From assembly GCF_013122565.1 (NCBI RefSeq), contig NZ_CP053258.1: a DNA stretch of 64,000 nt. The stretch is one strand, 5' to 3'. The notes under the pieces were generated by a model. It saw only the letters and a list, made by a program, of their open reading frames with translations, made no database searches and had not been told where the DNA came from. This document shows positions 28,445-57,218 of this stretch, one piece after another; within the stretch, counting starts at the first letter, position 1, and the number at the start of each line of letters is the position of its first letter. A program made the translations under genes and the position numbers. Source of the stretch: Escherichia coli. Lineage in GTDB: Bacteria > Pseudomonadota > Gammaproteobacteria > Enterobacterales > Enterobacteriaceae.

Positions 28445-30751
28445 CTACATTCCATAACGTTCAGAAATAGCAGCATGTTTCTCTTCATTCGCCCCGGCTT
28501 CTTTGGCAAGACGCCACCAGCACAACGGATGTTCCCAGTCAGCGGTCAATTCGTGCAAGGTCTTATCGATATCACCTTTAGAAACTGAACGCGGCGCACT
28601 GATAACAAAGTAGAATGCGGGAAGTGGCTGCGCATCTTCACCCTGATGACTGTCCGTTAACGTATAGTCGTCATTACTGTTGCTCCAGTAGTACCAGTTT
28701 CGTTCGCGGAGCGCCTCACGGAAGGCATTAAACTGTTCTTCACCAGGCATGACACCTTCGCAGAACCAGGACTCGCCGTATTCGGTCGGAATAATGGTTT
28801 GCAGGCAGGCATAAAGTGGCGTGAAATTCTTCTGCTCTTCCTCATCCTCTGGTCGGGAGTTCAACATTTCTGCATCGAATACCACAACTTCATCAACATG
28901 TTGCGGATAATCGGTCCGGTAAGTTGGCTCAATGATCCTTGCTGTTACCGGCCCAATACGTTGAGCATAGTAATAGCGGTATTCATAATTTTCCCGGAAG
29001 CGGATGTTTAACAACCCCCATTTTTCGTCAATAAAACCTTCGCCTTCCGTGAGTTCGATTTCCAGTTCAGCAGCAATAGCACGAACCAAATCCCATTGTT
29101 GCAGGATGCTGGCGGTCGCCATGATATCCCACTGGAGATTTCGAATATCTTCTTCACGGCTAATCATCAGTTGCTGCAATTGCTGTAAATAATCCAGTTG
29201 TCGATCCCAGGCTTCCTGTTTTTGTGCTGCCCAGGAGCACATGCGATAAACGCCAACCCACTCACGCCCTTTTTCGTGTTGCAGCAACTGTTGCCCAATC
29301 GACTCCAGTTCACTCCAGTCTTCCTGTTGGTTGATCACTCGCGCGCGGAACCACAAGGCCATATGTAGCAGCCCCGCCTGTTCATACTGCTTCGCCAGAT
29401 GCTCGATAGTTTGCAAATCGTCACGGTGGAGCAAGAGATCCAACAGATCGAAGCAAAGTCCATTATCTTCCTGAAGATGGCTTTCAACGTAGCGTTGCAG
29501 GAGTTCAATCGATTCATCAATCGCATTGCAGGCGTTTAACGCATTGACCAGCTTGCCCAGCAATTCCGCATCATCAGGCGTGTTCAGATAAGCGCGGCGG
29601 AATGTTTCTACGTCTTTTTCTGGATCTGGCTGCGTTTCTTCATCGCTATTTTCAGGTACTTCTACAACCGGACGAGCCAGCAACTCTGCTTCTTTGGCGG
29701 CTATTTTTTCACTCAGTTCGAGAAATTCGCGATCGACGCCCAGTAACGCGCGTAATTTTGGCATGTGTCGCTGGGCCAGTTTCATCGCTATTTTGGCAAC
29801 CCAGACGGATTCACGCTCCAGCGCCAGGGTAATTTGCAGTTTCGCCAGATCAACCACTTTGCGGTGCGCCCCGGCCTGTGAACGTTGCTCCAGCATTTTC
29901 TGGATGATGCGCGCCAGTTGCCAGTTGTTTCTTTGTGGATGACGGGGAAGTAACACAGTAATGATTTTCAGCCATGACCCCCATGAATGCGGAGTCAGAT
30001 CGGACCAACGCGGTAATTCCTCCCAGACTTCTTCGTCCTGCCCGCATAACGCCATGATGTACAGTTTTTTTAGGTGATTACTAATGCGGTCGCGGCCCCA
30101 GTAATCATTGCTTTCTGTCAGCTCATCAATCAGTTTGCGTGCTTCATCATAACGCTGAAGTTCAATCAGAATATCGGCGCGAGTATAAAGTAATGGATCA
30201 AAATCATCTTCCCCGGCGGCTTTAACCGCGTCGATTTGCCGATCCAGATAAGCCAGTGCCTCCTCTGTTCTTTTGGAATCTATCAGTGCACTGGCATATT
30301 CAGTGGACAAACACTGAAAACAGCTCCAGGTTGCATCAATGCGCGCGATGGTTTCTTCACACACCGCCATGCGTTCATTCGCCCAGCCAGGTGCATCAAT
30401 ATTTTCGTAGCAGGCGGATAAATCCTGGGTAACGCAGATAGATTGCGGGCAATCTTTCGCCTCTTCCCGGTGCGCTTTTTCAAACAGCGCCACCACGTCT
30501 GGCAGTACTTTTTCGCCTTCTTCGCGGTTAGTGAGACGATGGCGCATTTCCCAGTGACCAATAAAAATCTCCAGCCACGGATTTTTTGCCACCTGGGTAA
30601 GCGCTTTTACTTCAGGTAATAGCGAATCGCACTTTTCCATTTGCAGGTGCATAACGCCTTCCGAATAATCATCGATAAGTTGCGGAATATACTCCTGCCC
30701 GGCATCGCGCAACTCCTTAGTATATTTATGGTACCAATCCCATATATCCAT
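28445..30751 (-). CDS. hypothetical 768-aa helical/acidic protein, translationally coupled to upstream Hsp90-like gene
   Basis: ORF MDIWDWYHKYTKELRDAGQEY...; RBS AAGGAAA 6 nt upstream of the ATG, embedded in the end of the upstream gene; 1-nt gap from its stop; no catalytic motif recognised. Confidence 0.8.
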   Translation of the reverse strand: MDIWDWYHKYTKELRDAGQEYIPQLIDDYSEGVMHLQMEKCDSLLPEVKALTQVAKNPWLEIFIGHWEMRHRLTNREEGEKVLPDVVALFEKAHREEAKDCPQSICVTQDLSACYENIDAPGWANERMAVCEETIARIDATWSCFQCLSTEYASALIDSKRTEEALAYLDRQIDAVKAAGEDDFDPLLYTRADILIELQRYDEARKLIDELTESNDYWGRDRISNHLKKLYIMALCGQDEEVWEELPRWSDLTPHSWGSWLKIITVLLPRHPQRNNWQLARIIQKMLEQRSQAGAHRKVVDLAKLQITLALERESVWVAKIAMKLAQRHMPKLRALLGVDREFLELSEKIAAKEAELLARPVVEVPENSDEETQPDPEKDVETFRRAYLNTPDDAELLGKLVNALNACNAIDESIELLQRYVESHLQEDNGLCFDLLDLLLHRDDLQTIEHLAKQYEQAGLLHMALWFRARVINQQEDWSELESIGQQLLQHEKGREWVGVYRMCSWAAQKQEAWDRQLDYLQQLQQLMISREEDIRNLQWDIMATASILQQWDLVRAIAAELEIELTEGEGFIDEKWGLLNIRFRENYEYRYYYAQRIGPVTARIIEPTYRTDYPQHVDEVVVFDAEMLNSRPEDEEEQKNFTPLYACLQTIIPTEYGESWFCEGVMPGEEQFNAFREALRERNWYYWSNSNDDYTLTDSHQGEDAQPLPAFYFVISAPRSVSKGDIDKTLHELTADWEHPLCWWRLAKEAGANEEKHAAISERYGM

Positions 30752-30752
30752 T

Positions 30753-32588
30753 TTATTTTCCTTGATTAATTAAAACGGGAATAACCTGAGTAAAATCTTC
30801 CAGTGCCTGGTGTAAATCCCACTGCTGTTCTTTATTGCCGCTGGAGCACAAAATCACTTTCAGCGATTTTAATAACCGTAATGCTGCCGCTGGCTGTTGA
30901 TGGTGTTGTAAGGCAGTCACCAGTTGCATGACACAGGGGTTATTAAGATTGATATACAGACTTGAGGTTTTCGTTTTTTGGATTTGCGAGGTAAATTGCC
31001 GCGCCAGCATTAACGCTGCGGTACTGATGCGTTTATCTGCGTCATCCTGTTCGAGAATTTGTTTTAATTCTGCTTCCCGGTCTGGCGTGACCACTAACGG
31101 CAAAACGGCGGGTTCGAAGCGGGAGATAATTAATTGCTCGCCATCGCAAAGATGCTCTTCCAGATAAGCCACTTGCTCTTCGGGTAATTCCGCCAGGCTG
31201 AACAATTGCTCATTGCCCGTTTGCGTACCGACTTCGATAATCCGGCAATGATATAACAGCGCCCAACGGCGTAAAAATGGCACCACCGCATAGCGATCGC
31301 CACGGGCTACAGGCCGTTGCAGAATATGGAACAACATCTCTTCAAAACCGCCGTCGCGGCTTAACAGAATATGAATGCTGTTATTAACGCGTAAATCCTT
31401 CGCCAACAGTGCGCCTTTTGACGTTGGCACCTGTAAGCGATCTTTGAGCAAATCAAACAGACGGTCATCACACAATGCCGCGCCCAGCAACGCTTCGTTG
31501 TGGCGCATTAATACACGCCGCCAGATTTCTGGCTGATTTTGTGCGAGATCGGACAAACCAGAAATCAGCGCCTCTTTTAACGCCTCCTGCACCGCAACCC
31601 AGGTTTCATCCCGCTGGAGATCTTCCCTGCTCGCCGTCGGCGTCAGTTTCGATGACTCAATCACGCCACCAATAAATCCGGCCCAGGGCGGTAACAACTC
31701 ACGCGCTTCGTCATCCAGTAACATACCGCGCAAAAACAACGACAGGTTGCGGTTATCGCTGGTGCCGTAGGTTGCGCCATCCTGAATCCATAAAATCCCG
31801 ACCGCGTCGCTCATCCCCGCTGGCACCACCGGAATGGTGCAAATCGGTTCGAAGGAGGATTCAAACTGTGCGGCAAAGGCGAGATTTTTACGCTGCACCA
31901 GCGCGCGGTGCATGGTCACGCCTTCGGGGGCAACTTCACGCCACGGTGGTTGAAGTTTATTTACCGGCTCGCTGGCATCGCCGACATAAACCGGTTCGTG
32001 CAGCAATATGCAGTAGCGGGAAAGAACGCGGTTCAGCAAATTATTACTTGCCAGATGGCTGTACTCTTCTTTGAGCGTCAGAATCACCTGCGTACCCGTT
32101 TCCGAGGACTGATGCGGCGTAACGGTATATTTTTGCCCGTCAGTAGAGTGGTATTTCCAGCTCTGATCCGGCGTTTGCCAGGATGTGGTCAACACCGTGA
32201 CCTCTTTTGCAAGTACAAATGCTGACAAGAAACCAAGGCCGAACATACCAATTAAACCGGTGTTGTCATCCTGCTGGCGCAACATTCGGGTATAACCCAC
32301 GCCCACTGTTGCCAGGAAGCCGTGAATTTCGCTTTCTGTCAAACCCGCACCGGTATCGGTAATGGTGATGGTGGACTTCGCCACGTCTGCCACTACACGA
32401 ATTTGGTTATCCTTTGGCGCATCGGGCTGCTCAATCCTGCGGCGCACGATCGCATCGTGTCCGTTCTGCACCAGCTCGCGCACGGCGACCACGGGCGTAG
32501 AGTAAAGGTGCTTACTGAGCACCTCAATTAAGCCGTTTAAATTAACTTCAGTAGAATATGAACTGCCAGGTAACTGTAATGTACTCAT
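30753..32588 (-). CDS. Hsp90-family (HtpG-like) GHKL ATPase paralog
   Basis: 611-aa ORF with Bergerat-fold motifs (…VRELVQNGHDA… ; …ITDTGAGLT… ; …GMFGLGFLSAF…) mirroring the HtpG N-domain ELISNASDA / DNGIGM / GQFGVGFYSAF; too divergent to be htpG itself. Confidence 0.75.
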   Translation of the reverse strand: MSTLQLPGSSYSTEVNLNGLIEVLSKHLYSTPVVAVRELVQNGHDAIVRRRIEQPDAPKDNQIRVVADVAKSTITITDTGAGLTESEIHGFLATVGVGYTRMLRQQDDNTGLIGMFGLGFLSAFVLAKEVTVLTTSWQTPDQSWKYHSTDGQKYTVTPHQSSETGTQVILTLKEEYSHLASNNLLNRVLSRYCILLHEPVYVGDASEPVNKLQPPWREVAPEGVTMHRALVQRKNLAFAAQFESSFEPICTIPVVPAGMSDAVGILWIQDGATYGTSDNRNLSLFLRGMLLDDEARELLPPWAGFIGGVIESSKLTPTASREDLQRDETWVAVQEALKEALISGLSDLAQNQPEIWRRVLMRHNEALLGAALCDDRLFDLLKDRLQVPTSKGALLAKDLRVNNSIHILLSRDGGFEEMLFHILQRPVARGDRYAVVPFLRRWALLYHCRIIEVGTQTGNEQLFSLAELPEEQVAYLEEHLCDGEQLIISRFEPAVLPLVVTPDREAELKQILEQDDADKRISTAALMLARQFTSQIQKTKTSSLYINLNNPCVMQLVTALQHHQQPAAALRLLKSLKVILCSSGNKEQQWDLHQALEDFTQVIPVLINQGK

Positions 32589-48184: not shown

Positions 48185-48970
48185 CTACGCGTCTTCTTGG
48201 GGAAGAATGATTTCAATTTGGCTGTCTTGTAAGCGTGATTTTAGCGCAGCGGGCGGCAGCTCGTCGGTAAAGAGCGCGGTGACCTGTGCAACGTTACCAA
48301 TTTCAACCGCCGCCGAAGCATGATACTTAGTGTGATCGGCGACCAGCAGGATATTTCTCGCGTGCGCCATCATCGTTTTCACCACGTTAGCTTCGTTAAC
48401 ATCAAACTCCATCAACGCGCCATCGCTCTCGATTGCGCCTACGCTTGTTACCAGATAATCAGCACGAAAATCGGCCACAAAGGACGCCGCTGAAGGGCCA
48501 ATGATCCCGCTATTATGAGAGCGCAACGTACCGCCGGGCACCATCACTTCAAAGCGCGGGTTGTGGTAAAGAATATGCGCCACACGCAGGCTGTTGGTGA
48601 TTATCCGCAAATGATTATGGTTAAGTAACGCCCGGGCAACATGCTCAACGGTCGTACCAATGGTGATAAATATTGTTGAACCATCAGGAATATAGTCTGC
48701 CACCGCTTCGGCAATCGCTTTTTTTTCCTCGGTTTGCGAAACCTCACGCTGCTCGAACGCCGTATTAACGACGCTGGAAGCCCGACCCGCGCCACCGTGA
48801 TGGCGCGTAATCAGGCCTTGCTCGCTTAATTTACGAATATCCCGGCGCACCGTCTGCGTGGAGACATCCAGCAGATTTGCCAGCTCATCAATATTCATAT
48901 ACCCACGCTCGGCGATCAGCATGAGGAGTTGGTCGTGCCGCGGGTTACCGGTTAGTTCGGTAAGGCTCAT
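48185..48970 (-). CDS. yihW: DeoR-family repressor of the sulfoquinovose operons (CsqR)
   Basis: 261 aa from ATG 48968-48970 (MSLTELTGNPRHDQLLMLIAERGYMNIDELANLLDVSTQTVRRDIRKL…). Confidence 0.88.
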   Translation of the reverse strand: MSLTELTGNPRHDQLLMLIAERGYMNIDELANLLDVSTQTVRRDIRKLSEQGLITRHHGGAGRASSVVNTAFEQREVSQTEEKKAIAEAVADYIPDGSTIFITIGTTVEHVARALLNHNHLRIITNSLRVAHILYHNPRFEVMVPGGTLRSHNSGIIGPSAASFVADFRADYLVTSVGAIESDGALMEFDVNEANVVKTMMAHARNILLVADHTKYHASAAVEIGNVAQVTALFTDELPPAALKSRLQDSQIEIILPQEDA

Positions 48971-49003
48971 GAAAATTCCTCGAAAAACCATCACCCTGGC
49001 ATT

Positions 49004-49900
49004 TTATACAAAAAGTGACAAAAAAGATCGGGTTTGATCACAGTCAGGGATCCCGGCTCGTCCACCGGGACGCGTGCATTTCAACGCCGCTACACCGCTG
49101 GCGAAGCGGACTGACTCCGCTAAATCCCCACCTGTTGCCAGCGCCACCGCCAATGCGCCGTGAAAAACATCACCCGCACCTGTGGTATCTACCACATCAA
49201 CTTTGAAGGCCGGTTGATGTTGACGCCCGCCATTTTCCAGCCAGTCGCAGCCTGCGCTGCCCTGGGTCACATAGACATGACCATTTGTGAGCGTTTGTGC
49301 CTGTTTTAGCGCACTGGCCATCTCTTTCACGCCCGTTAAGCGCGCCAGACCCGGTTCTGAAAAGGCCGCGTGATCGCTTAATGCCACCAGCTCGCTAATA
49401 TCCTGCGGCGTAATGTCCCCGTCCAGAACGGTCATCACGCCCGCCTGCCGGGCCAGGGTGAAGGCTTTTTTAGCACCCTCGTGCCAGCGTACATCTGCCA
49501 GCACAACATCCCACTGAGAGAAATCAATTTCCTCCAACCACTCTGCGTCAGGCAACAGGTCCGGGCTGGGGTAGTTAATGATTATCCGCTCGCCTTTGGC
49601 ATCCACCATGATGGCGGATTGCGAAGATTTCGCCTGGTTATACCGCTTAGTGTAACGGGTGTTAACGCCCCAGGATTCCAGCTCTGCCAGCAGGCTGTTG
49701 CCCGTGTCGTCATCACCTACGCGACCAATAAAATCGACCTGCGCCCCCAGCCTTGCTGCCGCAACCGCTGCCGTCGCCGCTGGCCCGCCACCAACTTCCT
49801 TATAATTTCTCGCCACGTATTTACCGCTCTCCGTCGGTAACCCTTCCACGTAATAGATGCGATCCATCACGGTTATACCTACACAAGCAACACGAATCAT
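49004..49900 (-). CDS. yihV: 6-deoxy-6-sulfofructose kinase (PfkB family)
   Basis: 298 aa from ATG 49898-49900 (MIRVACVGITVMDRIYYVEGLP…; C-terminal TGAGDVF motif). Confidence 0.9.
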   Translation of the reverse strand: MIRVACVGITVMDRIYYVEGLPTESGKYVARNYKEVGGGPAATAAVAAARLGAQVDFIGRVGDDDTGNSLLAELESWGVNTRYTKRYNQAKSSQSAIMVDAKGERIIINYPSPDLLPDAEWLEEIDFSQWDVVLADVRWHEGAKKAFTLARQAGVMTVLDGDITPQDISELVALSDHAAFSEPGLARLTGVKEMASALKQAQTLTNGHVYVTQGSAGCDWLENGGRQHQPAFKVDVVDTTGAGDVFHGALAVALATGGDLAESVRFASGVAALKCTRPGGRAGIPDCDQTRSFLSLFV

Positions 49901-49906
49901 GGTCAT

Positions 49907-50067: not shown

Positions 50068-50964
50068 ATGGCAGCAATCGCGTTTATCGGTTTAGGACAA
50101 ATGGGTTCGCCAATGGCGAGCAATTTATTGCAGCAAGGGCACCAACTTCGCGTCTTTGATGTGAATGCCGAGGCTGTGCGGCATCTGGTAGACAAAGGCG
50201 CGACTCCCGCCGCCAATCCGGCGCAGGCCGCAAAAGATGCCGAATTTATCATTACCATGTTGCCGAATGGCGATCTGGTGCGCAGCGTGTTGTTCGGTGA
50301 AAACGGCGTTTGCGAAAGCTTATCTACCGATGCGCTGGTCATTGATATGTCGACCATCCATCCGCTGCAAACCGATAAATTGATTGCCGATATGCAAGCC
50401 AAAGGCTTCAGCATGATGGATGTTCCGGTAGGCCGTACTTCTGCAAATGCCATTACCGGTACTCTGTTACTGCTGGCTGGCGGCACCGCTGAACAAGTTG
50501 AACGTGCCACGCCGATCCTGATGGCGATGGGCAGTGAGTTGATCAACGCGGGCGGTCCGGGCATGGGGATCCGCGTTAAGCTCATCAACAACTATATGAG
50601 TATCGCGCTCAATGCGCTTTCGGCAGAAGCTGCCGTTTTGTGCGAAGCCCTGAATCTTCCTTTCGATGTTGCCGTCAAGGTGATGAGCGGCACCGCCGCC
50701 GGTAAAGGCCACTTCACCACTTCCTGGCCGAATAAAGTCCTCAGCGGGGATCTTTCTCCCGCCTTCATGATCGATCTTGCCCATAAGGATCTTGGCATCG
50801 CCCTTGATGTCGCCAACCAGCTGCATGTGCCAATGCCGCTGGGGGCCGCCTCGCGGGAGGTTTATAGCCAGGCGCGCGCAGCGGGTCGCGGTCGCCAGGA
50901 CTGGTCCGCCATTCTGGAACAGGTCCGTGTCAGTGCCGGGATGACTGCCAAAGTAAAAATGTAA
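50068..50964 (+). CDS. yihU: 3-sulfolactaldehyde reductase
   Basis: 298-aa ORF with Rossmann motif AFIGLGQMG. Confidence 0.93.
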
Positions 50965-50987: not shown

Positions 50988-51866
50988 ATGAATAAGTACA
51001 CCATCAACGACATTACGCGCGCATCGGGCGGTTTTGCCATGCTGGCGGTCGATCAGCGCGAAGCCATGCGTATGATGTTTGCCGCGGCAGGGGCACCCGC
51101 TCCGGTAGCCGATAGCGTTTTAACTGATTTCAAAGTTAACGCGGCGAAGACCCTCTCGCCTTATGCCTCGGCGATTCTGGTAGATCAACAATTCTGTTAC
51201 CGCCAGGTGGTTGAGCAAAACGCGATTGCCAAAAGTTGCGCCATGATTGTCGCCGCCGATGAGTTCATTCCTGGCAACGGTATTCCGGTAGATAGCGTGG
51301 TCATTGACCGCAAAATCAATCCGCTACAGATCAAACAAGACGGTGGCAAAGCCTTAAAACTGCTGGTGCTGTGGCGTAGTGATGAAGATGCGCAGCAACG
51401 CCTGGATATGGTGAAAGAGTTTAACGAACTGTGCCACTCACACGGCCTGGTAAGCATTATTGAGCCAGTCGTCCGCCCACCACGTCGTGGCGATAAATTC
51501 GATCGCGAACAAGCGATCATCGATGCTGCCAAAGAGCTGGGCGACAGTGGCGCAGACCTCTACAAAGTTGAAATGCCGCTTTACGGTAAAGGTCCGCAAC
51601 AAGAGCTTCTCAGTGCTTCACAACGTCTGAATGACCATATCAATATGCCGTGGGTGATCCTCTCTTCCGGTGTCGACGAAAAACTGTTCCCGCGTGCCGT
51701 ACGCGTGGCAATGACAGCGGGTGCATCGGGCTTCCTGGCTGGTCGTGCCGTCTGGGCATCGATCGTCGGTTTACCAGACAACGAGCTGATGCTGCGTGAC
51801 GTTTGCGCACCGAAATTACAACAACTTGGCGATATCGTCGACGAAATGATGGCTAAACGCCGCTAA
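50988..51866 (+). CDS. yihT: 6-deoxy-6-sulfofructose-1-phosphate aldolase
   Basis: 292-aa ORF; synteny within the sulfoquinovose cluster. Confidence 0.93.
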
Positions 51867-51881
51867 GATGGGGATACAAAA

Positions 51882-53123
51882 ATGAAATGGTTTAACACCT
51901 TAAGTCACAACCGTTGGCTGGAACAGGAAACCGATCGCATCTTTGATTTTGGTAAAAATTCCGTAGTACCGACCGGATTTGGCTGGTTAGGCAATAAAGG
52001 GCAAATCAAAGAAGAGATGGGCACCCATCTGTGGATCACCGCTCGTATGTTGCACGTTTATTCCGTTGCTGCGGCGATGGGTCGCCCTGGCGCTTACGCG
52101 CTGGTTGATCACGGTATCAAAGCCATGAACGGCGCACTGCGCGATAAAAAATATGGCGGCTGGTATGCCTGTGTGAATGACGAGGGCGTGGTGGATGCCT
52201 CCAAACAAGGCTATCAACACTTCTTTGCTCTGCTGGGTGCCGCCAGCGCCGTCACTACCGGTCACCCGGAAGCACGCAAGCTGCTCGATTACACCATTGA
52301 AATTATTGAAAAATATTTCTGGAGTGAAGAAGAGCAGATGTGCCTGGAGTCGTGGGACGAAGCCTTCAGCAAAACCGAAGAGTACCGCGGCGGCAATGCC
52401 AATATGCACGCGGTGGAAGCCTTCCTGATTGTTTATGACGTAACGCATGACAAAAAATGGCTGGATCGCGCGATTCGCGTGGCTTCTGTGATTATCCACG
52501 ACGTCGCCAGAAATAATCATTATCGCGTTAACGAGCACTTCGATACCCAGTGGAATCCGCTGCCGGATTACAACAAAGATAACCCTGCTCACCGTTTCCG
52601 CGCATTCGGAGGTACTCCGGGCCACTGGATCGAATGGGGCCGTTTAATGCTGCATATCCACGCGGCCCTGGAAGCCCGTTGCGAACAACCGCCAGCATGG
52701 CTGCTAGAAGATGCCAAAGGTCTGTTTAACGCCACCGTGCGTGATGCCTGGGCACCCGATGGTGCGGACGGGATTGTTTATACCGTTGACTGGGAAGGAA
52801 AACCGGTGGTCCGCGAACGTGTGCGTTGGCCTATCGTCGAAGCGATGGGTACGGCCTACGCGCTCTACACCGTCACCGGCGATCGCCAGTACGAAACCTG
52901 GTATCAGACATGGTGGGACTACTGCATTAAGTACCTGATGGACTATGAAAATGGTTCCTGGTGGCAGGAGCTGGATGCGGACAATAAAGTCACCACGAAA
53001 GTCTGGGACGGCAAACAGGATATTTATCACCTGCTGCATTGCCTGGTGATCCCGCGTATCCCGTTAGCACCAGGCCTGGCTCCGGCGGTTGCAGCGGGTC
53101 TGCTGGATATTAACGCGAAATAA
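51882..53123 (+). CDS. yihS: sulfoquinovose isomerase
   Basis: 413-aa ORF; synteny. Confidence 0.93.
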
Positions 53124-53189
53124 CTGACTAAAAAAACGACATATCAGGCTGCACGCCGGGTATGTCGTTATTCAATAAAGGTACCTCGT

Positions 53190-54092
53190 ATGCAAATCAC
53201 CAACATGCATTGCAGTGGACAGACCGTTTCACTTGCCGCGGGGGATTATCACGCGACCATTGTGACCGTCGGTGCAGGTCTGGCTGAATTAACCTTTCAG
53301 GGCTGTCATTTAGTTATTCCGCATAAGCCCGAAGAGATGCCACTGGCACATCTGGGCAAAGTCCTTATTCCGTGGCCGAACCGGATCGCCAACGGCTGTT
53401 ACCGCTATCAGGGGCAGGATTATCAGTTACCCATTAATGAACATGGTTCAAAAGCCGCTATTCATGGGCTGCTCGCCTGGCGTGACTGGCAAATCAGCGA
53501 ATTAACCGCCACCAGCGTTACCCTGACAGCTTTTCTGCCGCCCAGTTACGGCTATCCGTTTATGCTGGCTTCGCAGGTTGTTTATTCGCTCAATGCACGC
53601 ACGGGTCTTTCCGTTGAGATCGCAAGCCAGAATATTGGTACTGTGACCGCACCCTATGGTGTGGGTATTCATCCTTATTTAACCTGCAACTTAACGCCTG
53701 TTGATGACTATGTATTCCAGCTTCCGGCAAACCAGGTTTATGCCGTCGATGAGCACGCGAATCCGACAACGCTTCACCACGTTGATGAGCTGGATTTAAA
53801 TTTCACGCAGGCGAAAAAAATAGCCGCGACAAAAATCGACCACACCTTTAAAACCGCGAATGATCTGTGGGAAATGACCATTACCCATCCAGAGCAAGCG
53901 CTTTCGGTAAGCCTTTGTTCCGATCAACCCTGGGTGCAGGTTTATAGCGGCGAAAAATTACAGCGTCAGGGACTGGCAGTTGAACCTATGAGTTGCCCAC
54001 CTAACGCCTTTAATTCAGGTCTCGACTTATTATTACTGGAACCAGGGAAAACGCACCGCCTGTTTTTTAATATTTACGGGCAGCACAATTAA
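53190..54092 (+). CDS. yihR: aldose-1-epimerase family protein (sulfoquinovose mutarotase)
   Basis: 300-aa ORF; synteny. Confidence 0.88.
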   Translation: MQITNMHCSGQTVSLAAGDYHATIVTVGAGLAELTFQGCHLVIPHKPEEMPLAHLGKVLIPWPNRIANGCYRYQGQDYQLPINEHGSKAAIHGLLAWRDWQISELTATSVTLTAFLPPSYGYPFMLASQVVYSLNARTGLSVEIASQNIGTVTAPYGVGIHPYLTCNLTPVDDYVFQLPANQVYAVDEHANPTTLHHVDELDLNFTQAKKIAATKIDHTFKTANDLWEMTITHPEQALSVSLCSDQPWVQVYSGEKLQRQGLAVEPMSCPPNAFNSGLDLLLLEPGKTHRLFFNIYGQHN

Positions 54093-54152
54093 TTTTATTA
54101 AGAAAAGAACGAGATCATTGTTTAGAGTTGTATTTACGCAACAGGAAATATC

Positions 54153-55028
54153 ATGGACTTTTTTACGTTATTTTCACCGGATGGGGTCATGCTGGAAACA
54201 AACGTGGTATGTATCGTTATCGCGTTAATGTTTCTTTATACCTTTGTGGGGATATGCGCGGGATTTGGCGGTGGTTTAACCACTATGCCGCTCGTCACGT
54301 TAATGCTCCCCGTAAAAATGGCAACTCCGCTCTCGGTGATTGTCGGCACCGCGACCGCCTTGTACGCCACCTGGCTGTCACGTAAAGAAACGGATTGGCG
54401 ATCGGCAATGGTACTGATTATTTTCTCGTTTCTGGGAATACCCGTCGGTTTATATGCGCTGTCATATTTACCCGACCATTTTATGAAAGTGGGCTTAGGC
54501 GGATTCCTTATCCTCTACTCGTTTTATAGTATGTTTATTCCACGCCTGCCGATTTATGACCGCAACTGGATCGCCGCACCTATAGGCGCAGTAGCTGGCG
54601 CATTAGGCGCGGCGTTCTCAACCAACGGACCGCCGATGGTTATCTACGGTATGCTGCGTAACTTAGGCCCGGCGGCATTTCGCGGCACTCTGAACGCTTT
54701 CTTCACCGCAAACAACATCGCGGTGATCGGCGGACTGGCGACCAGCGGAATTTTGACTGTTTCTATCTTTAAACTGGTGCTGTTTTGTATTCCCACCATG
54801 ATCCTCGGTTCACTGGTTGGACAATATGTGCATAAACGCATTTCAGTCAAAGTGTTCCGTGTGATGGTCTTTTTGTTGCTGATTGCCTCCGGTTCTATGT
54901 TGATAAAAGGCGCGCTGGGAATTCCCGCTGCTGCCGCGCTTCTGCCTCCTTTTACCTTGTTAGTTATACTGCAACTGGCATTTGGTAAAAAAGTGGCGGC
55001 AATCCGCCGGGCTGAAGAAAGTAAATAA
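54153..55028 (+). CDS. TauE/SafE-family anion (sulfite/sulfonate) exporter
   Basis: 291-aa polytopic ORF with glycine-rich N-terminal helix (GICAGFGGGLTTMPLV) and an internal duplicated 4-TM architecture; I recall yihR and yihQ as adjacent in K-12. Confidence 0.8.
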   Translation: MDFFTLFSPDGVMLETNVVCIVIALMFLYTFVGICAGFGGGLTTMPLVTLMLPVKMATPLSVIVGTATALYATWLSRKETDWRSAMVLIIFSFLGIPVGLYALSYLPDHFMKVGLGGFLILYSFYSMFIPRLPIYDRNWIAAPIGAVAGALGAAFSTNGPPMVIYGMLRNLGPAAFRGTLNAFFTANNIAVIGGLATSGILTVSIFKLVLFCIPTMILGSLVGQYVHKRISVKVFRVMVFLLLIASGSMLIKGALGIPAAAALLPPFTLLVILQLAFGKKVAAIRRAEESK

Positions 55029-55136
55029 TCACTTATGCGGGTTTTAATTTATACCAGCACCACATTCTTTAATTAATGAAACCTGTAACAACAGGATGGC
55101 ATGAAATATTAGCTTTATACTCTATGGAGATTATTT

Positions 55137-57173
55137 ATGGATACGCCACGCCCACAATTACCAGATTTTCAGTTTCATCAGAATAACGACAGTTTTACCC
55201 TACATTTTCAACAGCGTCTTATTTTAACCCATAGCAAAGATAATCCTTGTTTATGGATTGGTTCAGGTATTGCGGATATCGATATGTTCCGCGGCAATTT
55301 CAGCATTAAAGATAAACTACAGGAGAAAATTGCGCTTACCGACGCCATCGTCAGCCAGTCACCGGATGGTTGGTTAATCCATTTCAGCCGTGGTTCTGAC
55401 ATTAGCGCCACGCTGAATATCTCTGCCGACGATCAGGGCCGTTTATTGCTGGAACTACAAAACGACAACCTTAACCACAACCGTATCTGGCTGCGCCTTG
55501 CCGCTCAACCAGAGGACCATATCTACGGCTGCGGCGAACAGTTTTCCTACTTCGATCTGCGCGGCAAACCGTTCCCGCTATGGACCAGTGAACAAGGCGT
55601 TGGTCGCAACAAACAAACCTATGTCACCTGGCAGGCCGACTGCAAAGAAAATGCGGGCGGCGACTATTACTGGACTTTCTTCCCACAGCCTACGTTTGTC
55701 AGCACGCAGAAGTATTACTGCCATGTTAATAACAGTTGCTACATGAACTTCGACTTTAGCGCCCCGGAATACCATGAACTGGCGCTGTGGGAAGACAAAG
55801 CTACGCTACGTTTTGAATGTGCTGACACATACATCTCCCTGCTGGAAAAATTAACTGCCCTGCTGGGACGCCAGCCAGAACTGCCCGACTGGATTTATGA
55901 CGGGGTAACGTTCGGCATTCAGGGCGGGACGGAAGTGTGCCAGAAGAAACTGGACACCATGCGTAACGCGGGCGTGAAAGTCAACGGCATCTGGGCGCAG
56001 GACTGGTCCGGGATCCGTATGACCTCTTTTGGCAAGCGCGTAATGTGGAACTGGAAGTGGAACAGCGAAAACTACCCGCAACTGGATTCACGCATTAAGC
56101 AGTGGAATCAGGAGGGCGTGCAGTTCCTGGCCTATATCAACCCGTATGTAGCCAGCGATAAAGATCTCTGCGAAGAGGCGGCAAAGCGCGGTTATCTGGC
56201 AAAAGATGCCTCTGGCGGTGACTATCTGGTGGAGTTTGGCGAGTTTTACGGCGGCGTTGTCGATCTCACTAATCCGGAAGCCTACGCCTGGTTCAAGGAA
56301 GTTATCAAAAAGAACATGATTGAACTCGGCTGCGGCGGCTGGATGGCTGACTTCGGCGAGTATCTGCCCACCGACACTTACCTGCATAACGGCGTCAGCG
56401 CGGAAATTATGCATAACGCCTGGCCTGCGCTGTGGGCGAAGTGTAACTACGAAGCCCTTGAAGAAACGGGCAAGCTCGGCGAGATCCTTTTCTTTATGCG
56501 CGCCGGTTCTACCGGTAGCCAGAAATACTCCACCATGATGTGGGCGGGCGACCAGAACGTCGACTGGAGTCTCGACGATGGCCTGGCGTCGGTTGTCCCG
56601 GCGGCGCTGTCGCTGGCAATGACCGGACATGGCCTGCATCACAGCGACATTGGCGGTTACACCACCCTGTTTGAGATGAAGCGCAGCAAAGAGCTGCTGC
56701 TGCGCTGGTGCGATTTCAGCGCCTTCACGCCGATGATGCGCACCCACGAAGGTAACCGTCCGGGCGACAACTGGCAGTTTGACGGCGACGCGGAAACTAT
56801 CGCCCATTTCGCCCGTATGACCACCGTCTTCACCACCCTGAAACCTTACCTGAAAGAGGCCGTCGCGCTGAATGCGAAGTCTGGCCTACCGGTTATGCGC
56901 CCGCTGTTCCTTCATTACGAAGACGATGCGCACACTTACACCCTGAAATATCAGTACCTGTTAGGTCGCGACATTCTGGTCGCTCCGGTGCATGAAGAAG
57001 GCCGTAGCGACTGGACGCTCTATCTACCGGAGGATAACTGGGTCCACGCCTGGACGGGTGAAGCGTTCCGGGGCGGGGAAGTTACCGTTAATGCGCCCAT
57101 CGGCAAGCCGCCGGTCTTTTATCGCGCCGATAGCGAATGGGCGGCACTGTTCGCGTCGTTAAAAAGCATCTAA
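55137..57173 (+). CDS. yihQ: sulfoquinovosidase (GH31)
   Basis: 678-aa ORF; GH31-like WAQDWSG / GGWMADFGE motifs. Confidence 0.93.
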   Translation: MDTPRPQLPDFQFHQNNDSFTLHFQQRLILTHSKDNPCLWIGSGIADIDMFRGNFSIKDKLQEKIALTDAIVSQSPDGWLIHFSRGSDISATLNISADDQGRLLLELQNDNLNHNRIWLRLAAQPEDHIYGCGEQFSYFDLRGKPFPLWTSEQGVGRNKQTYVTWQADCKENAGGDYYWTFFPQPTFVSTQKYYCHVNNSCYMNFDFSAPEYHELALWEDKATLRFECADTYISLLEKLTALLGRQPELPDWIYDGVTFGIQGGTEVCQKKLDTMRNAGVKVNGIWAQDWSGIRMTSFGKRVMWNWKWNSENYPQLDSRIKQWNQEGVQFLAYINPYVASDKDLCEEAAKRGYLAKDASGGDYLVEFGEFYGGVVDLTNPEAYAWFKEVIKKNMIELGCGGWMADFGEYLPTDTYLHNGVSAEIMHNAWPALWAKCNYEALEETGKLGEILFFMRAGSTGSQKYSTMMWAGDQNVDWSLDDGLASVVPAALSLAMTGHGLHHSDIGGYTTLFEMKRSKELLLRWCDFSAFTPMMRTHEGNRPGDNWQFDGDAETIAHFARMTTVFTTLKPYLKEAVALNAKSGLPVMRPLFLHYEDDAHTYTLKYQYLLGRDILVAPVHEEGRSDWTLYLPEDNWVHAWTGEAFRGGEVTVNAPIGKPPVFYRADSEWAALFASLKSI

Positions 57174-57218
57174 TCACATCCGCCCGTGGGGAAACTCACG
57201 GGCAAAGGGAGAACAACG

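Follow-up and report, generated by a model that had tools for sequence, protein, structure and literature searches.

The gene analyzed here encodes a permease of the TauE/SafE type, below called tauE, and occupies positions 54153..55028 on the plus strand of a 64,000-nucleotide stretch of Escherichia coli DNA (contig NZ_CP053258.1; hereafter the window). It is embedded in a cluster for the breakdown of sulfoquinovose (SQ) that is a complete sulfo-EMP (sulfo-Embden-Meyerhof-Parnas, or yih) cluster, with csqR-yihV on the minus strand and yihUTSR-tauE-yihQPO-ompL on the plus strand. The divergent arm consists of csqR (yihW, 48185-48994, minus strand) and yihV (sulfofructose (SF) kinase, 49004-49906, minus strand), while yihU (sulfolactaldehyde (SLA) reductase, 50068-50964), yihT (sulfofructose phosphate (SFP) aldolase, 50988-51866) and yihS (SQ isomerase, 51882-53123) precede tauE on the plus strand and are co-directional with it. 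The immediate neighbors of tauE, also on the plus strand, are yihR (sulfoquinovose mutarotase, 53190..54092), from which it is separated by a 60-bp spacer, and yihQ (sulfoquinovosidase, 55137..57173), which follows after a 108-bp spacer; their products are 95.3% and 99.3% identical in amino acid sequence to YihR and YihQ of K-12, respectively. Further downstream and in the same direction, yihP and yihO (two permeases of the glycoside-pentoside-hexuronide (GPH)/MFS_2 type) and ompL (porin) extend over 57186..60809, coordinates that represent the maxima given by the open reading frame (ORF) tool, as the starts chosen by PGAP lie further in.

The tauE ORF is intact and comprises 291 codons from its ATG start to a stop codon within 54153..55028. 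A Shine-Dalgarno-like AGGA (54143..54146, plus strand) can be read six bases 5' of the ATG, and the start codon is supported by the N-terminus MDFFTLF(S/T)PDG, which is kept in orthologues of other genera. A scan of positions 53000-55400 for promoters and terminators yielded nothing above the expectation from shuffled sequence, and the two spacers flanking tauE were empty except for the palindrome CCTGTAACAACAGG (55082..55095) in the tauE-yihQ spacer, which precedes the start of yihQ by 42 bases. This palindrome is conserved with one substitution in K-12, in E. whittamii and in another tauE-carrying E. coli and is missing in Salmonella; the sequence 5' of it is unrelated between the E. coli cluster variants described below. 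It could be a candidate operator or RNA hairpin for yihQPO-ompL.

The translation of tauE is strongly hydrophobic in hydropathy analysis and matches the Pfam model PF01925 with an E-value of 4.7e-35 and 121.8 bits (gathering cut-off 32.6), the match spanning protein residues 23-248 and nearly the entire 237-position profile (positions 2-235). In an alignment of 84 sequences, which takes in relatives of only 26-38% identity, G37, F38, G39 and G99 were invariant, and P46, P59, G95, P97, G159 and P160 were nearly so. PGAP labels the identical protein WP_000345434.1 (100% amino acid identity) as "sulfite exporter TauE/SafE family protein", while no specific model was matched in an NCBIfam search. 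TauE belongs to the TauE/SafE (TSUP) family by hidden Markov model (HMM), topology and motifs, and the words "sulfite exporter" are only a family label for it. An earlier note, made by a model from the letters of the window, had assigned the gene product to this family and had placed the gene between yihR and yihQ; both statements agree with the Pfam match and the coordinates given above.

The AlphaFold2 model of TauE, built with the 84-sequence alignment as input, is all-helical and polytopic (pLDDT 93.8, pTM 0.90). Its helices comprise residues 16-36/40-48, 54-75, 82-105, 108-128, 138-155/159-168, 173-198, 203-227, 232-255 and 259-290 and form two halves, each of which consists of a helix-break-helix element followed by three transmembrane helices. 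The breaks coincide with the conserved motifs GFGGG (37-41) and NGPP (158-161). Together with hydropathy, the model matches the family-typical count of about eight transmembrane helices, the ninth, C-terminal helix (259-290) being missing from shorter relatives of about 240-250 amino acids. Examined for a 4+4 duplication, the two halves agreed in their pattern of modeled helices, while comparison of one half with the other by sequence was not significant (BLASTP E-value of 12; hhalign probability 1.6%, E-value 0.03, in register). Searching PDB with the TauE sequence produced no match even at an E-value of 1, and no TSUP-family structure turned up in a Foldseek search against PDB. The nearest solved fold was that of BacA/UppP (PDB 5OON and 6FMT; TM-score 0.44-0.52, E-value 0.015, 16% identity), a weak resemblance in fold without any sequence relationship. 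BacA/UppP is an undecaprenyl-pyrophosphate phosphatase, an enzyme that is not known as a transporter.

The corresponding region of K-12 MG1655 lacks this gene. There, yihQ comes directly after yihR, and the 198-bp spacer between the two contains no annotated gene. According to blastn, homology between the window and K-12 stops at position 54083 and resumes at 55079, so that the segment carrying tauE (54084..55078; 996 bp here versus 152 bp in K-12) is replaced by 152 unrelated bp. No remnant of tauE was detected in the K-12 spacer, for which a permissive global alignment returned scattered short matches only. The 152-bp K-12 filler itself gave nothing beyond chance matches of 10-11 bases when compared by blastn-short with the window and with the loci of Salmonella, E. 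whittamii, Enterobacteriaceae RIT691 and Klebsiella. The earlier note had taken yihR and yihQ to be neighbors in K-12, and this adjacency and the lack of the permease gene there are confirmed by the MG1655 annotation and by blastn; an unannotated copy at the same K-12 site, which the note had named as the observation that would contradict it, was looked for and is not there.

Two smaller differences were apparent in the vicinity. The K-12 yihS-yihR spacer holds about 75 extra bases of G/C-rich, repeat-like sequence (…GGGTTTTCCCCTCTCCCTAACCCTCTCCCCAAAGGGGCGAGGGGACC…) that are lacking at 53134-53160 of the window, and this indel constitutes a second small difference between the two cluster variants. 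In addition, YihR was more divergent than its cluster neighbors in every comparison made, with 95.3% identity to K-12 (other yih proteins 98.5-99.6%), 88.7% to E. whittamii (other cluster proteins 96.6-99.3%, TauE 99.3%) and 69.8% to Salmonella (other cluster proteins 84-97%). This pattern suggests either relaxed constraint or recombination breakpoints beside the tauE indel.

To place the two variants in context, we surveyed the complete genomes available for E. coli in RefSeq, 5426 in number, to which all E. coli counts given here refer. tauE was present and annotated in 1296 of them, among these O157:H7, O55:H7 and several enterotoxigenic E. coli (ETEC), and 1287 of the copies were nearly full length and mostly 95-99% identical. 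The K-12-type yihR-yihQ spacer was found in 2634 genomes, and 4004 matched the yihS-yihR-(tauE)-yihQ region in any form; the genomes in which this region had no match plausibly have the yihTUVW cassette that is termed "short" in PMC12608037. That study (Kaznadzey et al. 2025) distinguishes only long and short yih cassettes and never mentions tauE, which adds a third structural variant (long plus tauE) to this picture. The window was about 98% identical over its whole length to the best-matching complete E. coli genomes, and its lineage is therefore not closely represented in the complete-genome collection.

The same gene order is present outside E. coli. In Salmonella enterica, yihS, yihR, a TauE of 291 amino acids (87% identical), yihQ, two GPH permeases and ompL follow each other as in the window, and the chromosomal flanks (yihX, yihY and dtd; bipA and glnA) are also the same as in E. 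coli. In the index of the assembly collection, more than 23,000 blocks list the Salmonella protein. E. whittamii likewise exhibits the order yihR-tauE-yihQ. The TauE proteins of the window and of Salmonella share 86.9% identity, while CsqR, YihV, YihU, YihT, YihQ, YihP, YihO and OmpL range from 84 to 89%; the divergence of TauE thus equals that of its cluster neighbors, as would be predicted under vertical co-inheritance. Because Salmonella and E. whittamii have the gene at the same place in the cluster and its divergence matches that of the flanking yih genes, the form with TauE is taken as ancestral. Judged by synteny and divergence, the K-12-type cluster is thus a derived deletion or replacement variant. 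An insertion or horizontal acquisition in this strain was considered and rejected on account of the Salmonella synteny and the equal divergence. The earlier note's suggestion that the permease might be a trait peculiar to this strain does not hold either, since close to a quarter of the E. coli genomes as well as Salmonella and E. whittamii carry it. The ratio of non-synonymous to synonymous substitution rates (dN/dS) of tauE was 0.018 relative to E. whittamii (dS 0.17) and about 0.04-0.06 relative to Leminorella, Edwardsiella, Hafnia and Pantoea, pairs in which dS is saturated. By these ratios tauE is under strong purifying selection, and an intact, conserved ORF under such selection is real far beyond chance.

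Orthologues of TauE were sought more widely. When 1.84 billion cluster representatives were scanned exhaustively with HMMER, 5632 relatives were recovered at E ≤ 0.001, among which there was one close full-length representative of the 50%-identity clusters (80% identical), the next full-length relatives being 26-38% identical and about 240-250 amino acids long. In a word-indexed search, the close group of 77-87% identity comprised proteins from Salmonella, Kluyvera, Enterobacter, Klebsiella, Raoultella, Hafnia, Pantoea, Mixta, Lelliottia, Morganella, Leminorella, Edwardsiella and Vibrio. Going by these identities, the orthologues (at least 77% identical) are a tight, isolated clade within the family.

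All 14 taxa examined harbored the tauE orthologue inside an SQ cluster, five of which were of the sulfo-EMP type and nine of a type that resembles the sulfo-Entner-Doudoroff (sulfo-ED) pathway, a class assigned from the domain composition of the clusters and referred to as sulfo-ED-like. Among the sulfo-EMP clusters, tauE lies in the yihR-tauE-yihQ slot in E. coli, E. whittamii and Salmonella and in a different slot, yihQ-tauE-GPH, in Enterobacteriaceae RIT691 and Klebsiella quasipneumoniae; the whole transport set of the K. quasipneumoniae cluster consists of one GPH permease and TauE. The sulfo-ED-like clusters were found in Leminorella, Edwardsiella, Vibrio owensii, Hafnia, Kluyvera, Pantoea, Enterobacter kobei, Morganella and Mixta. 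Their operon encodes, in this order, an IlvD/Edd dehydratase, an HpcH/HpaI aldolase, an aldose epimerase, an SMP-30 lactonase, a reductase of the beta-hydroxyacid dehydrogenase type and an SDR dehydrogenase, with TauE as the last gene product, while an SSF symporter is encoded divergently and, in the six loci with an annotated flank, a LacI-type regulator lies beyond it. Hafnia, Leminorella and Vibrio are also among the carriers of sulfo-ED genes listed by Frommeyer et al. (PMC7491151). Overall, tauE occupies three different positions within the SQ clusters of the taxa examined, every cluster contains a candidate importer of the sugar:cation symporter type (GPH or SSF), and the only features common to both cluster types are the substrate SQ, the mutarotase, the reductase and the TauE permease.

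The sulfo-ED-like clusters have a reductase where the sulfo-ED pathway of Pseudomonas putida uses an SLA dehydrogenase (PMC7491151). This reductase carries the domains NAD_binding_2/NAD_binding_11 and, in the six clusters compared, keeps the equivalent of Lys171 of YihU. Its identity to YihU is 27-30%, and Asn174 and Ser178 of the YihU sulfonate pocket are replaced by His and Val. Use of the YihU pocket motif to confirm 2,3-dihydroxypropane-1-sulfonate (DHPS) as the product of the sulfo-ED-like clusters therefore failed, as these two residues are not conserved; if the enzyme is an SLA reductase, it would recognize the sulfonate differently from YihU.

Closer examination of the gene neighborhoods revealed further rearrangements. 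The sulfo-ED-like cluster of Kluyvera ascorbata is located beside bipA-glnA, the spot that sulfo-EMP occupies in E. coli and Salmonella. In E. kobei, the TauE-ending sulfo-ED-like cluster and a sulfo-EMP cluster are about 1.4 kb apart, with a gene for Hcp of the type VI secretion system (T6SS), a Tlde1-domain gene and a small ORF in between, and in this sulfo-EMP cluster yihS is directly followed by yihQ, without yihR and tauE. From these arrangements, the bipA-glnA locus looks like a hotspot for the swapping of alternative sulfoquinovose pathways.

Gene context makes it, on balance, probable that TauE serves as a dedicated exporter for DHPS, or for C3 sulfonates in general, and it is from this context that we infer both substrate and direction. 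In the proposed scheme TauE would carry DHPS, the anionic C3 end product that is formed by YihU and that the cell does not break down any further, across the inner membrane, probably alongside or instead of YihP, and tauE would be co-transcribed with the yih genes or stand under CsqR control. The features expected of such an exporter are present at the locus, as tauE lies within the SQ cluster and is co-directional with it, as in all 14 taxa examined, and the cluster also encodes a sulfonate-producing reductase (YihU orthologue) and a separate candidate importer. Export is the most economical role because each cluster already holds a candidate importer of the GPH or SSF type and the sulfonate product must leave the cell. 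Related proposals exist for other sulfoglycolysis clusters, where the TauE-type protein SftE is the predicted exporter of sulfolactate (SL) or DHPS of sulfo-transaldolase (sulfo-TAL) clusters (PMC7491151) and a TauE permease has been proposed for SL export in the sulfo-EMP pathway of Arthrobacter (PMC8873060).

Several observations weigh against a role in export. K-12 grows on SQ and excretes DHPS without tauE (PMC6278857), so that TauE is dispensable or redundant under laboratory conditions, and the literature regards YihP as the "most likely" DHPS exporter or assumes this function for it (PMC6278857; PMC12890257). SQ import has been attributed to TauE/TSUP proteins (PMC8940949), the family name includes the term "uptake permease", and the association with SQ clusters would be expected of an importer no less than of an exporter. 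DHPS as the product of the sulfo-ED-like clusters is itself deduced, since the reductase there is distant from YihU and differs in the pocket. The promoter and terminator scan gave no convincing signal that would link tauE to its neighbors or separate it from them. The idea of a product exporter put forward in the earlier note is thus the reading best supported by gene context across the 14 taxa, with the direction of transport conjectural; DHPS excretion by K-12, in effect a natural knock-out, indicates redundancy and does not decide on the role either way. The second proposal made there, an extended pathway variant, was rejected, as no additional enzyme gene accompanies tauE in the window cluster.

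The main alternative, which we regard as unlikely, is that TauE imports a sulfonate (sulfoquinovose, sulfoquinovosyl-glycerol or other feed of the pathway) and supplements YihO and YihP. The family is named after the uptake of 4-toluene-sulfonate, and the TauE/TSUP transporters of sulfo-EMP and sulfo-ED clusters are described as importing SQ and its glycosides in PMC8940949; a shared substrate would explain the strict co-occurrence with SQ clusters equally well, and DHPS export in K-12 proceeds without TauE (PMC6278857). However, the usual types of sugar importer, GPH or SSF symporters, are already encoded in every cluster, and clusters with one GPH permease plus TauE would under this alternative hold two importers and no exporter. 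TauE is moreover small, with about 8-9 transmembrane helices, and the cited family members have been proposed for small anions such as sulfite and sulfolactate (PMC8873060).

It is rather improbable that TauE exports a different anion of the pathway, serving as a detoxification valve for sulfolactaldehyde or sulfolactate or else releasing sulfite. The PGAP and Pfam name "sulfite exporter TauE/SafE" would agree with this, as would the description of the founding member as a sulfite exporter and the proposal of sulfolactate for the Arthrobacter protein (references in PMC8873060). Sulfite is not expected, however, since the end product excreted by sulfo-EMP is DHPS (PMC7491151). Moreover, neither a desulfonating enzyme nor an aldehyde dehydrogenase family was recognizable among the listed domains of the 14 loci, the former speaking against sulfite and the latter, together with the presence of a reductase in all clusters, against sulfolactate. 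That TauE is a hitch-hiking or general membrane protein without a role in SQ metabolism, or serves an older "O-antigen capsule" role of the Salmonella yih operon, is very improbable: half of the E. coli genomes lack tauE, and older literature reportedly links the yihU-yshA operon of Salmonella to capsule, but tauE is under strong purifying selection and its isolated clade occurs only in SQ clusters, in two unrelated pathway types and at three positions.

Returning to DHPS export by TauE, a more far-reaching version, which we advance tentatively and hold to be possible, is that in enterobacterial sulfoglycolysis the export of DHPS was originally the dedicated task of TauE and not of YihP, in which case YihO and YihP would both be importers (e.g. 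of SQ and of SQ-glycerol or other glycosides). If this were true, the textbook transport scheme would derive from K-12 and hence from a deletion-variant cluster. E. coli with and without tauE, an old polymorphism that divides roughly 24% from 49% of the complete genomes, would then differ in the speed or cleanness of DHPS release to sulfonate-respiring gut bacteria.

The breakdown of sulfoquinovose by Enterobacteriaceae supplies DHPS to sulfite-respiring gut bacteria that produce H2S. The model strain K-12 carries a reduced cluster, while TauE is part of the ancestral cluster present in Salmonella, in O157:H7 and in roughly a quarter of E. coli, and a permease of the same clade is encoded last in sulfo-ED-like clusters such as those of Hafnia and Vibrio, by which the export step becomes genetically testable. 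Part of this is already known, as tauE is catalogued in RefSeq, its family is known and TauE-type exporters in sulfoglycolysis clusters are an established idea, and the gain is in this respect incremental. According to PMC8940949, a secondary source, the original sulfo-EMP and sulfo-ED papers reportedly showed TauE genes in the clusters. The K-12-centered literature overlooks tauE; what is added here are the recognition of K-12 as a reduced variant and the connection of a specific TauE clade with SQ catabolism in two pathways.

Additional variable regions were apparent elsewhere in the window. Homology to K-12 ends at 60819, just past ompL, where K-12 has yihN-yihM-yihL; in their place, positions 60990-64000 (plus strand) contain three ORFs of 282, 328 and 290 amino acids. 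The counterparts in E. coli bear the PGAP names "STM4015 family", "STM4014 family" (ATP-grasp, matched weakly) and "STM4013/SEN3800 family hydrolase", the last with a sulfatase/alkaline-phosphatase fold, and in related genomes two radical-SAM proteins (STM4012 and STM4011) and a Cof-type HAD hydrolase come next. This STM4015-STM4013 island was found in only 157 of the 5426 genomes, all 90-95% identical to the window, and in some Salmonella. A two-gene insertion is located between yiiG and fdhD (28445-32588, minus strand) and encodes a TPR protein of 768 amino acids and an HSP90-like GHKL ATPase of 611 amino acids (HATPase_c_3 plus HSP90 middle region). PADLOC returned only weak partial TmtA matches for this pair, which may be of the defence type. 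At least 80% of positions 24001-48000 was covered in only 267 genomes, so that either this insertion or another part of that section is variable.

Among previously described systems, the founders of PF01925, SafE and the TauE of Cupriavidus necator H16 (TSUP, TC 2.A.102), belong to the same family by HMM and are likewise small polytopic permeases for sulfur-containing anions encoded in sulfonate-degradation clusters. Their link is to C2-sulfonate pathways in which sulfite or sulfoacetate is set free, whereas the sulfo-EMP cluster of the window has no recognizable desulfonating enzyme. From other family members the TauE described here is set apart by its separate, tight Enterobacterales/Vibrio clade, with the next relatives in the library searched at 38% identity or less, and by its extra C-terminal helix. 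SftE of the sulfo-TAL clusters (sulfofructose transaldolase (SFT) clusters) of Firmicutes resembles TauE in Pfam family, in location within an SQ cluster and in its proposed function in C3-sulfonate export (PMC7491151), and some of its clusters also end in DHPS via a YihU-like reductase (PMC7491151). Compared by family and description, SftE differs in belonging to a transaldolase pathway and to another phylum. YihP of K-12 (GPH/MFS_2), on the other hand, is a member of the unrelated glycoside-pentoside-hexuronide symporter family, about 65% identical to YihO, and occurs in both cluster variants, while K-12 has no TauE; the two nevertheless share the same cluster and the same proposed role, which for both was assigned by elimination and not by transport assay.

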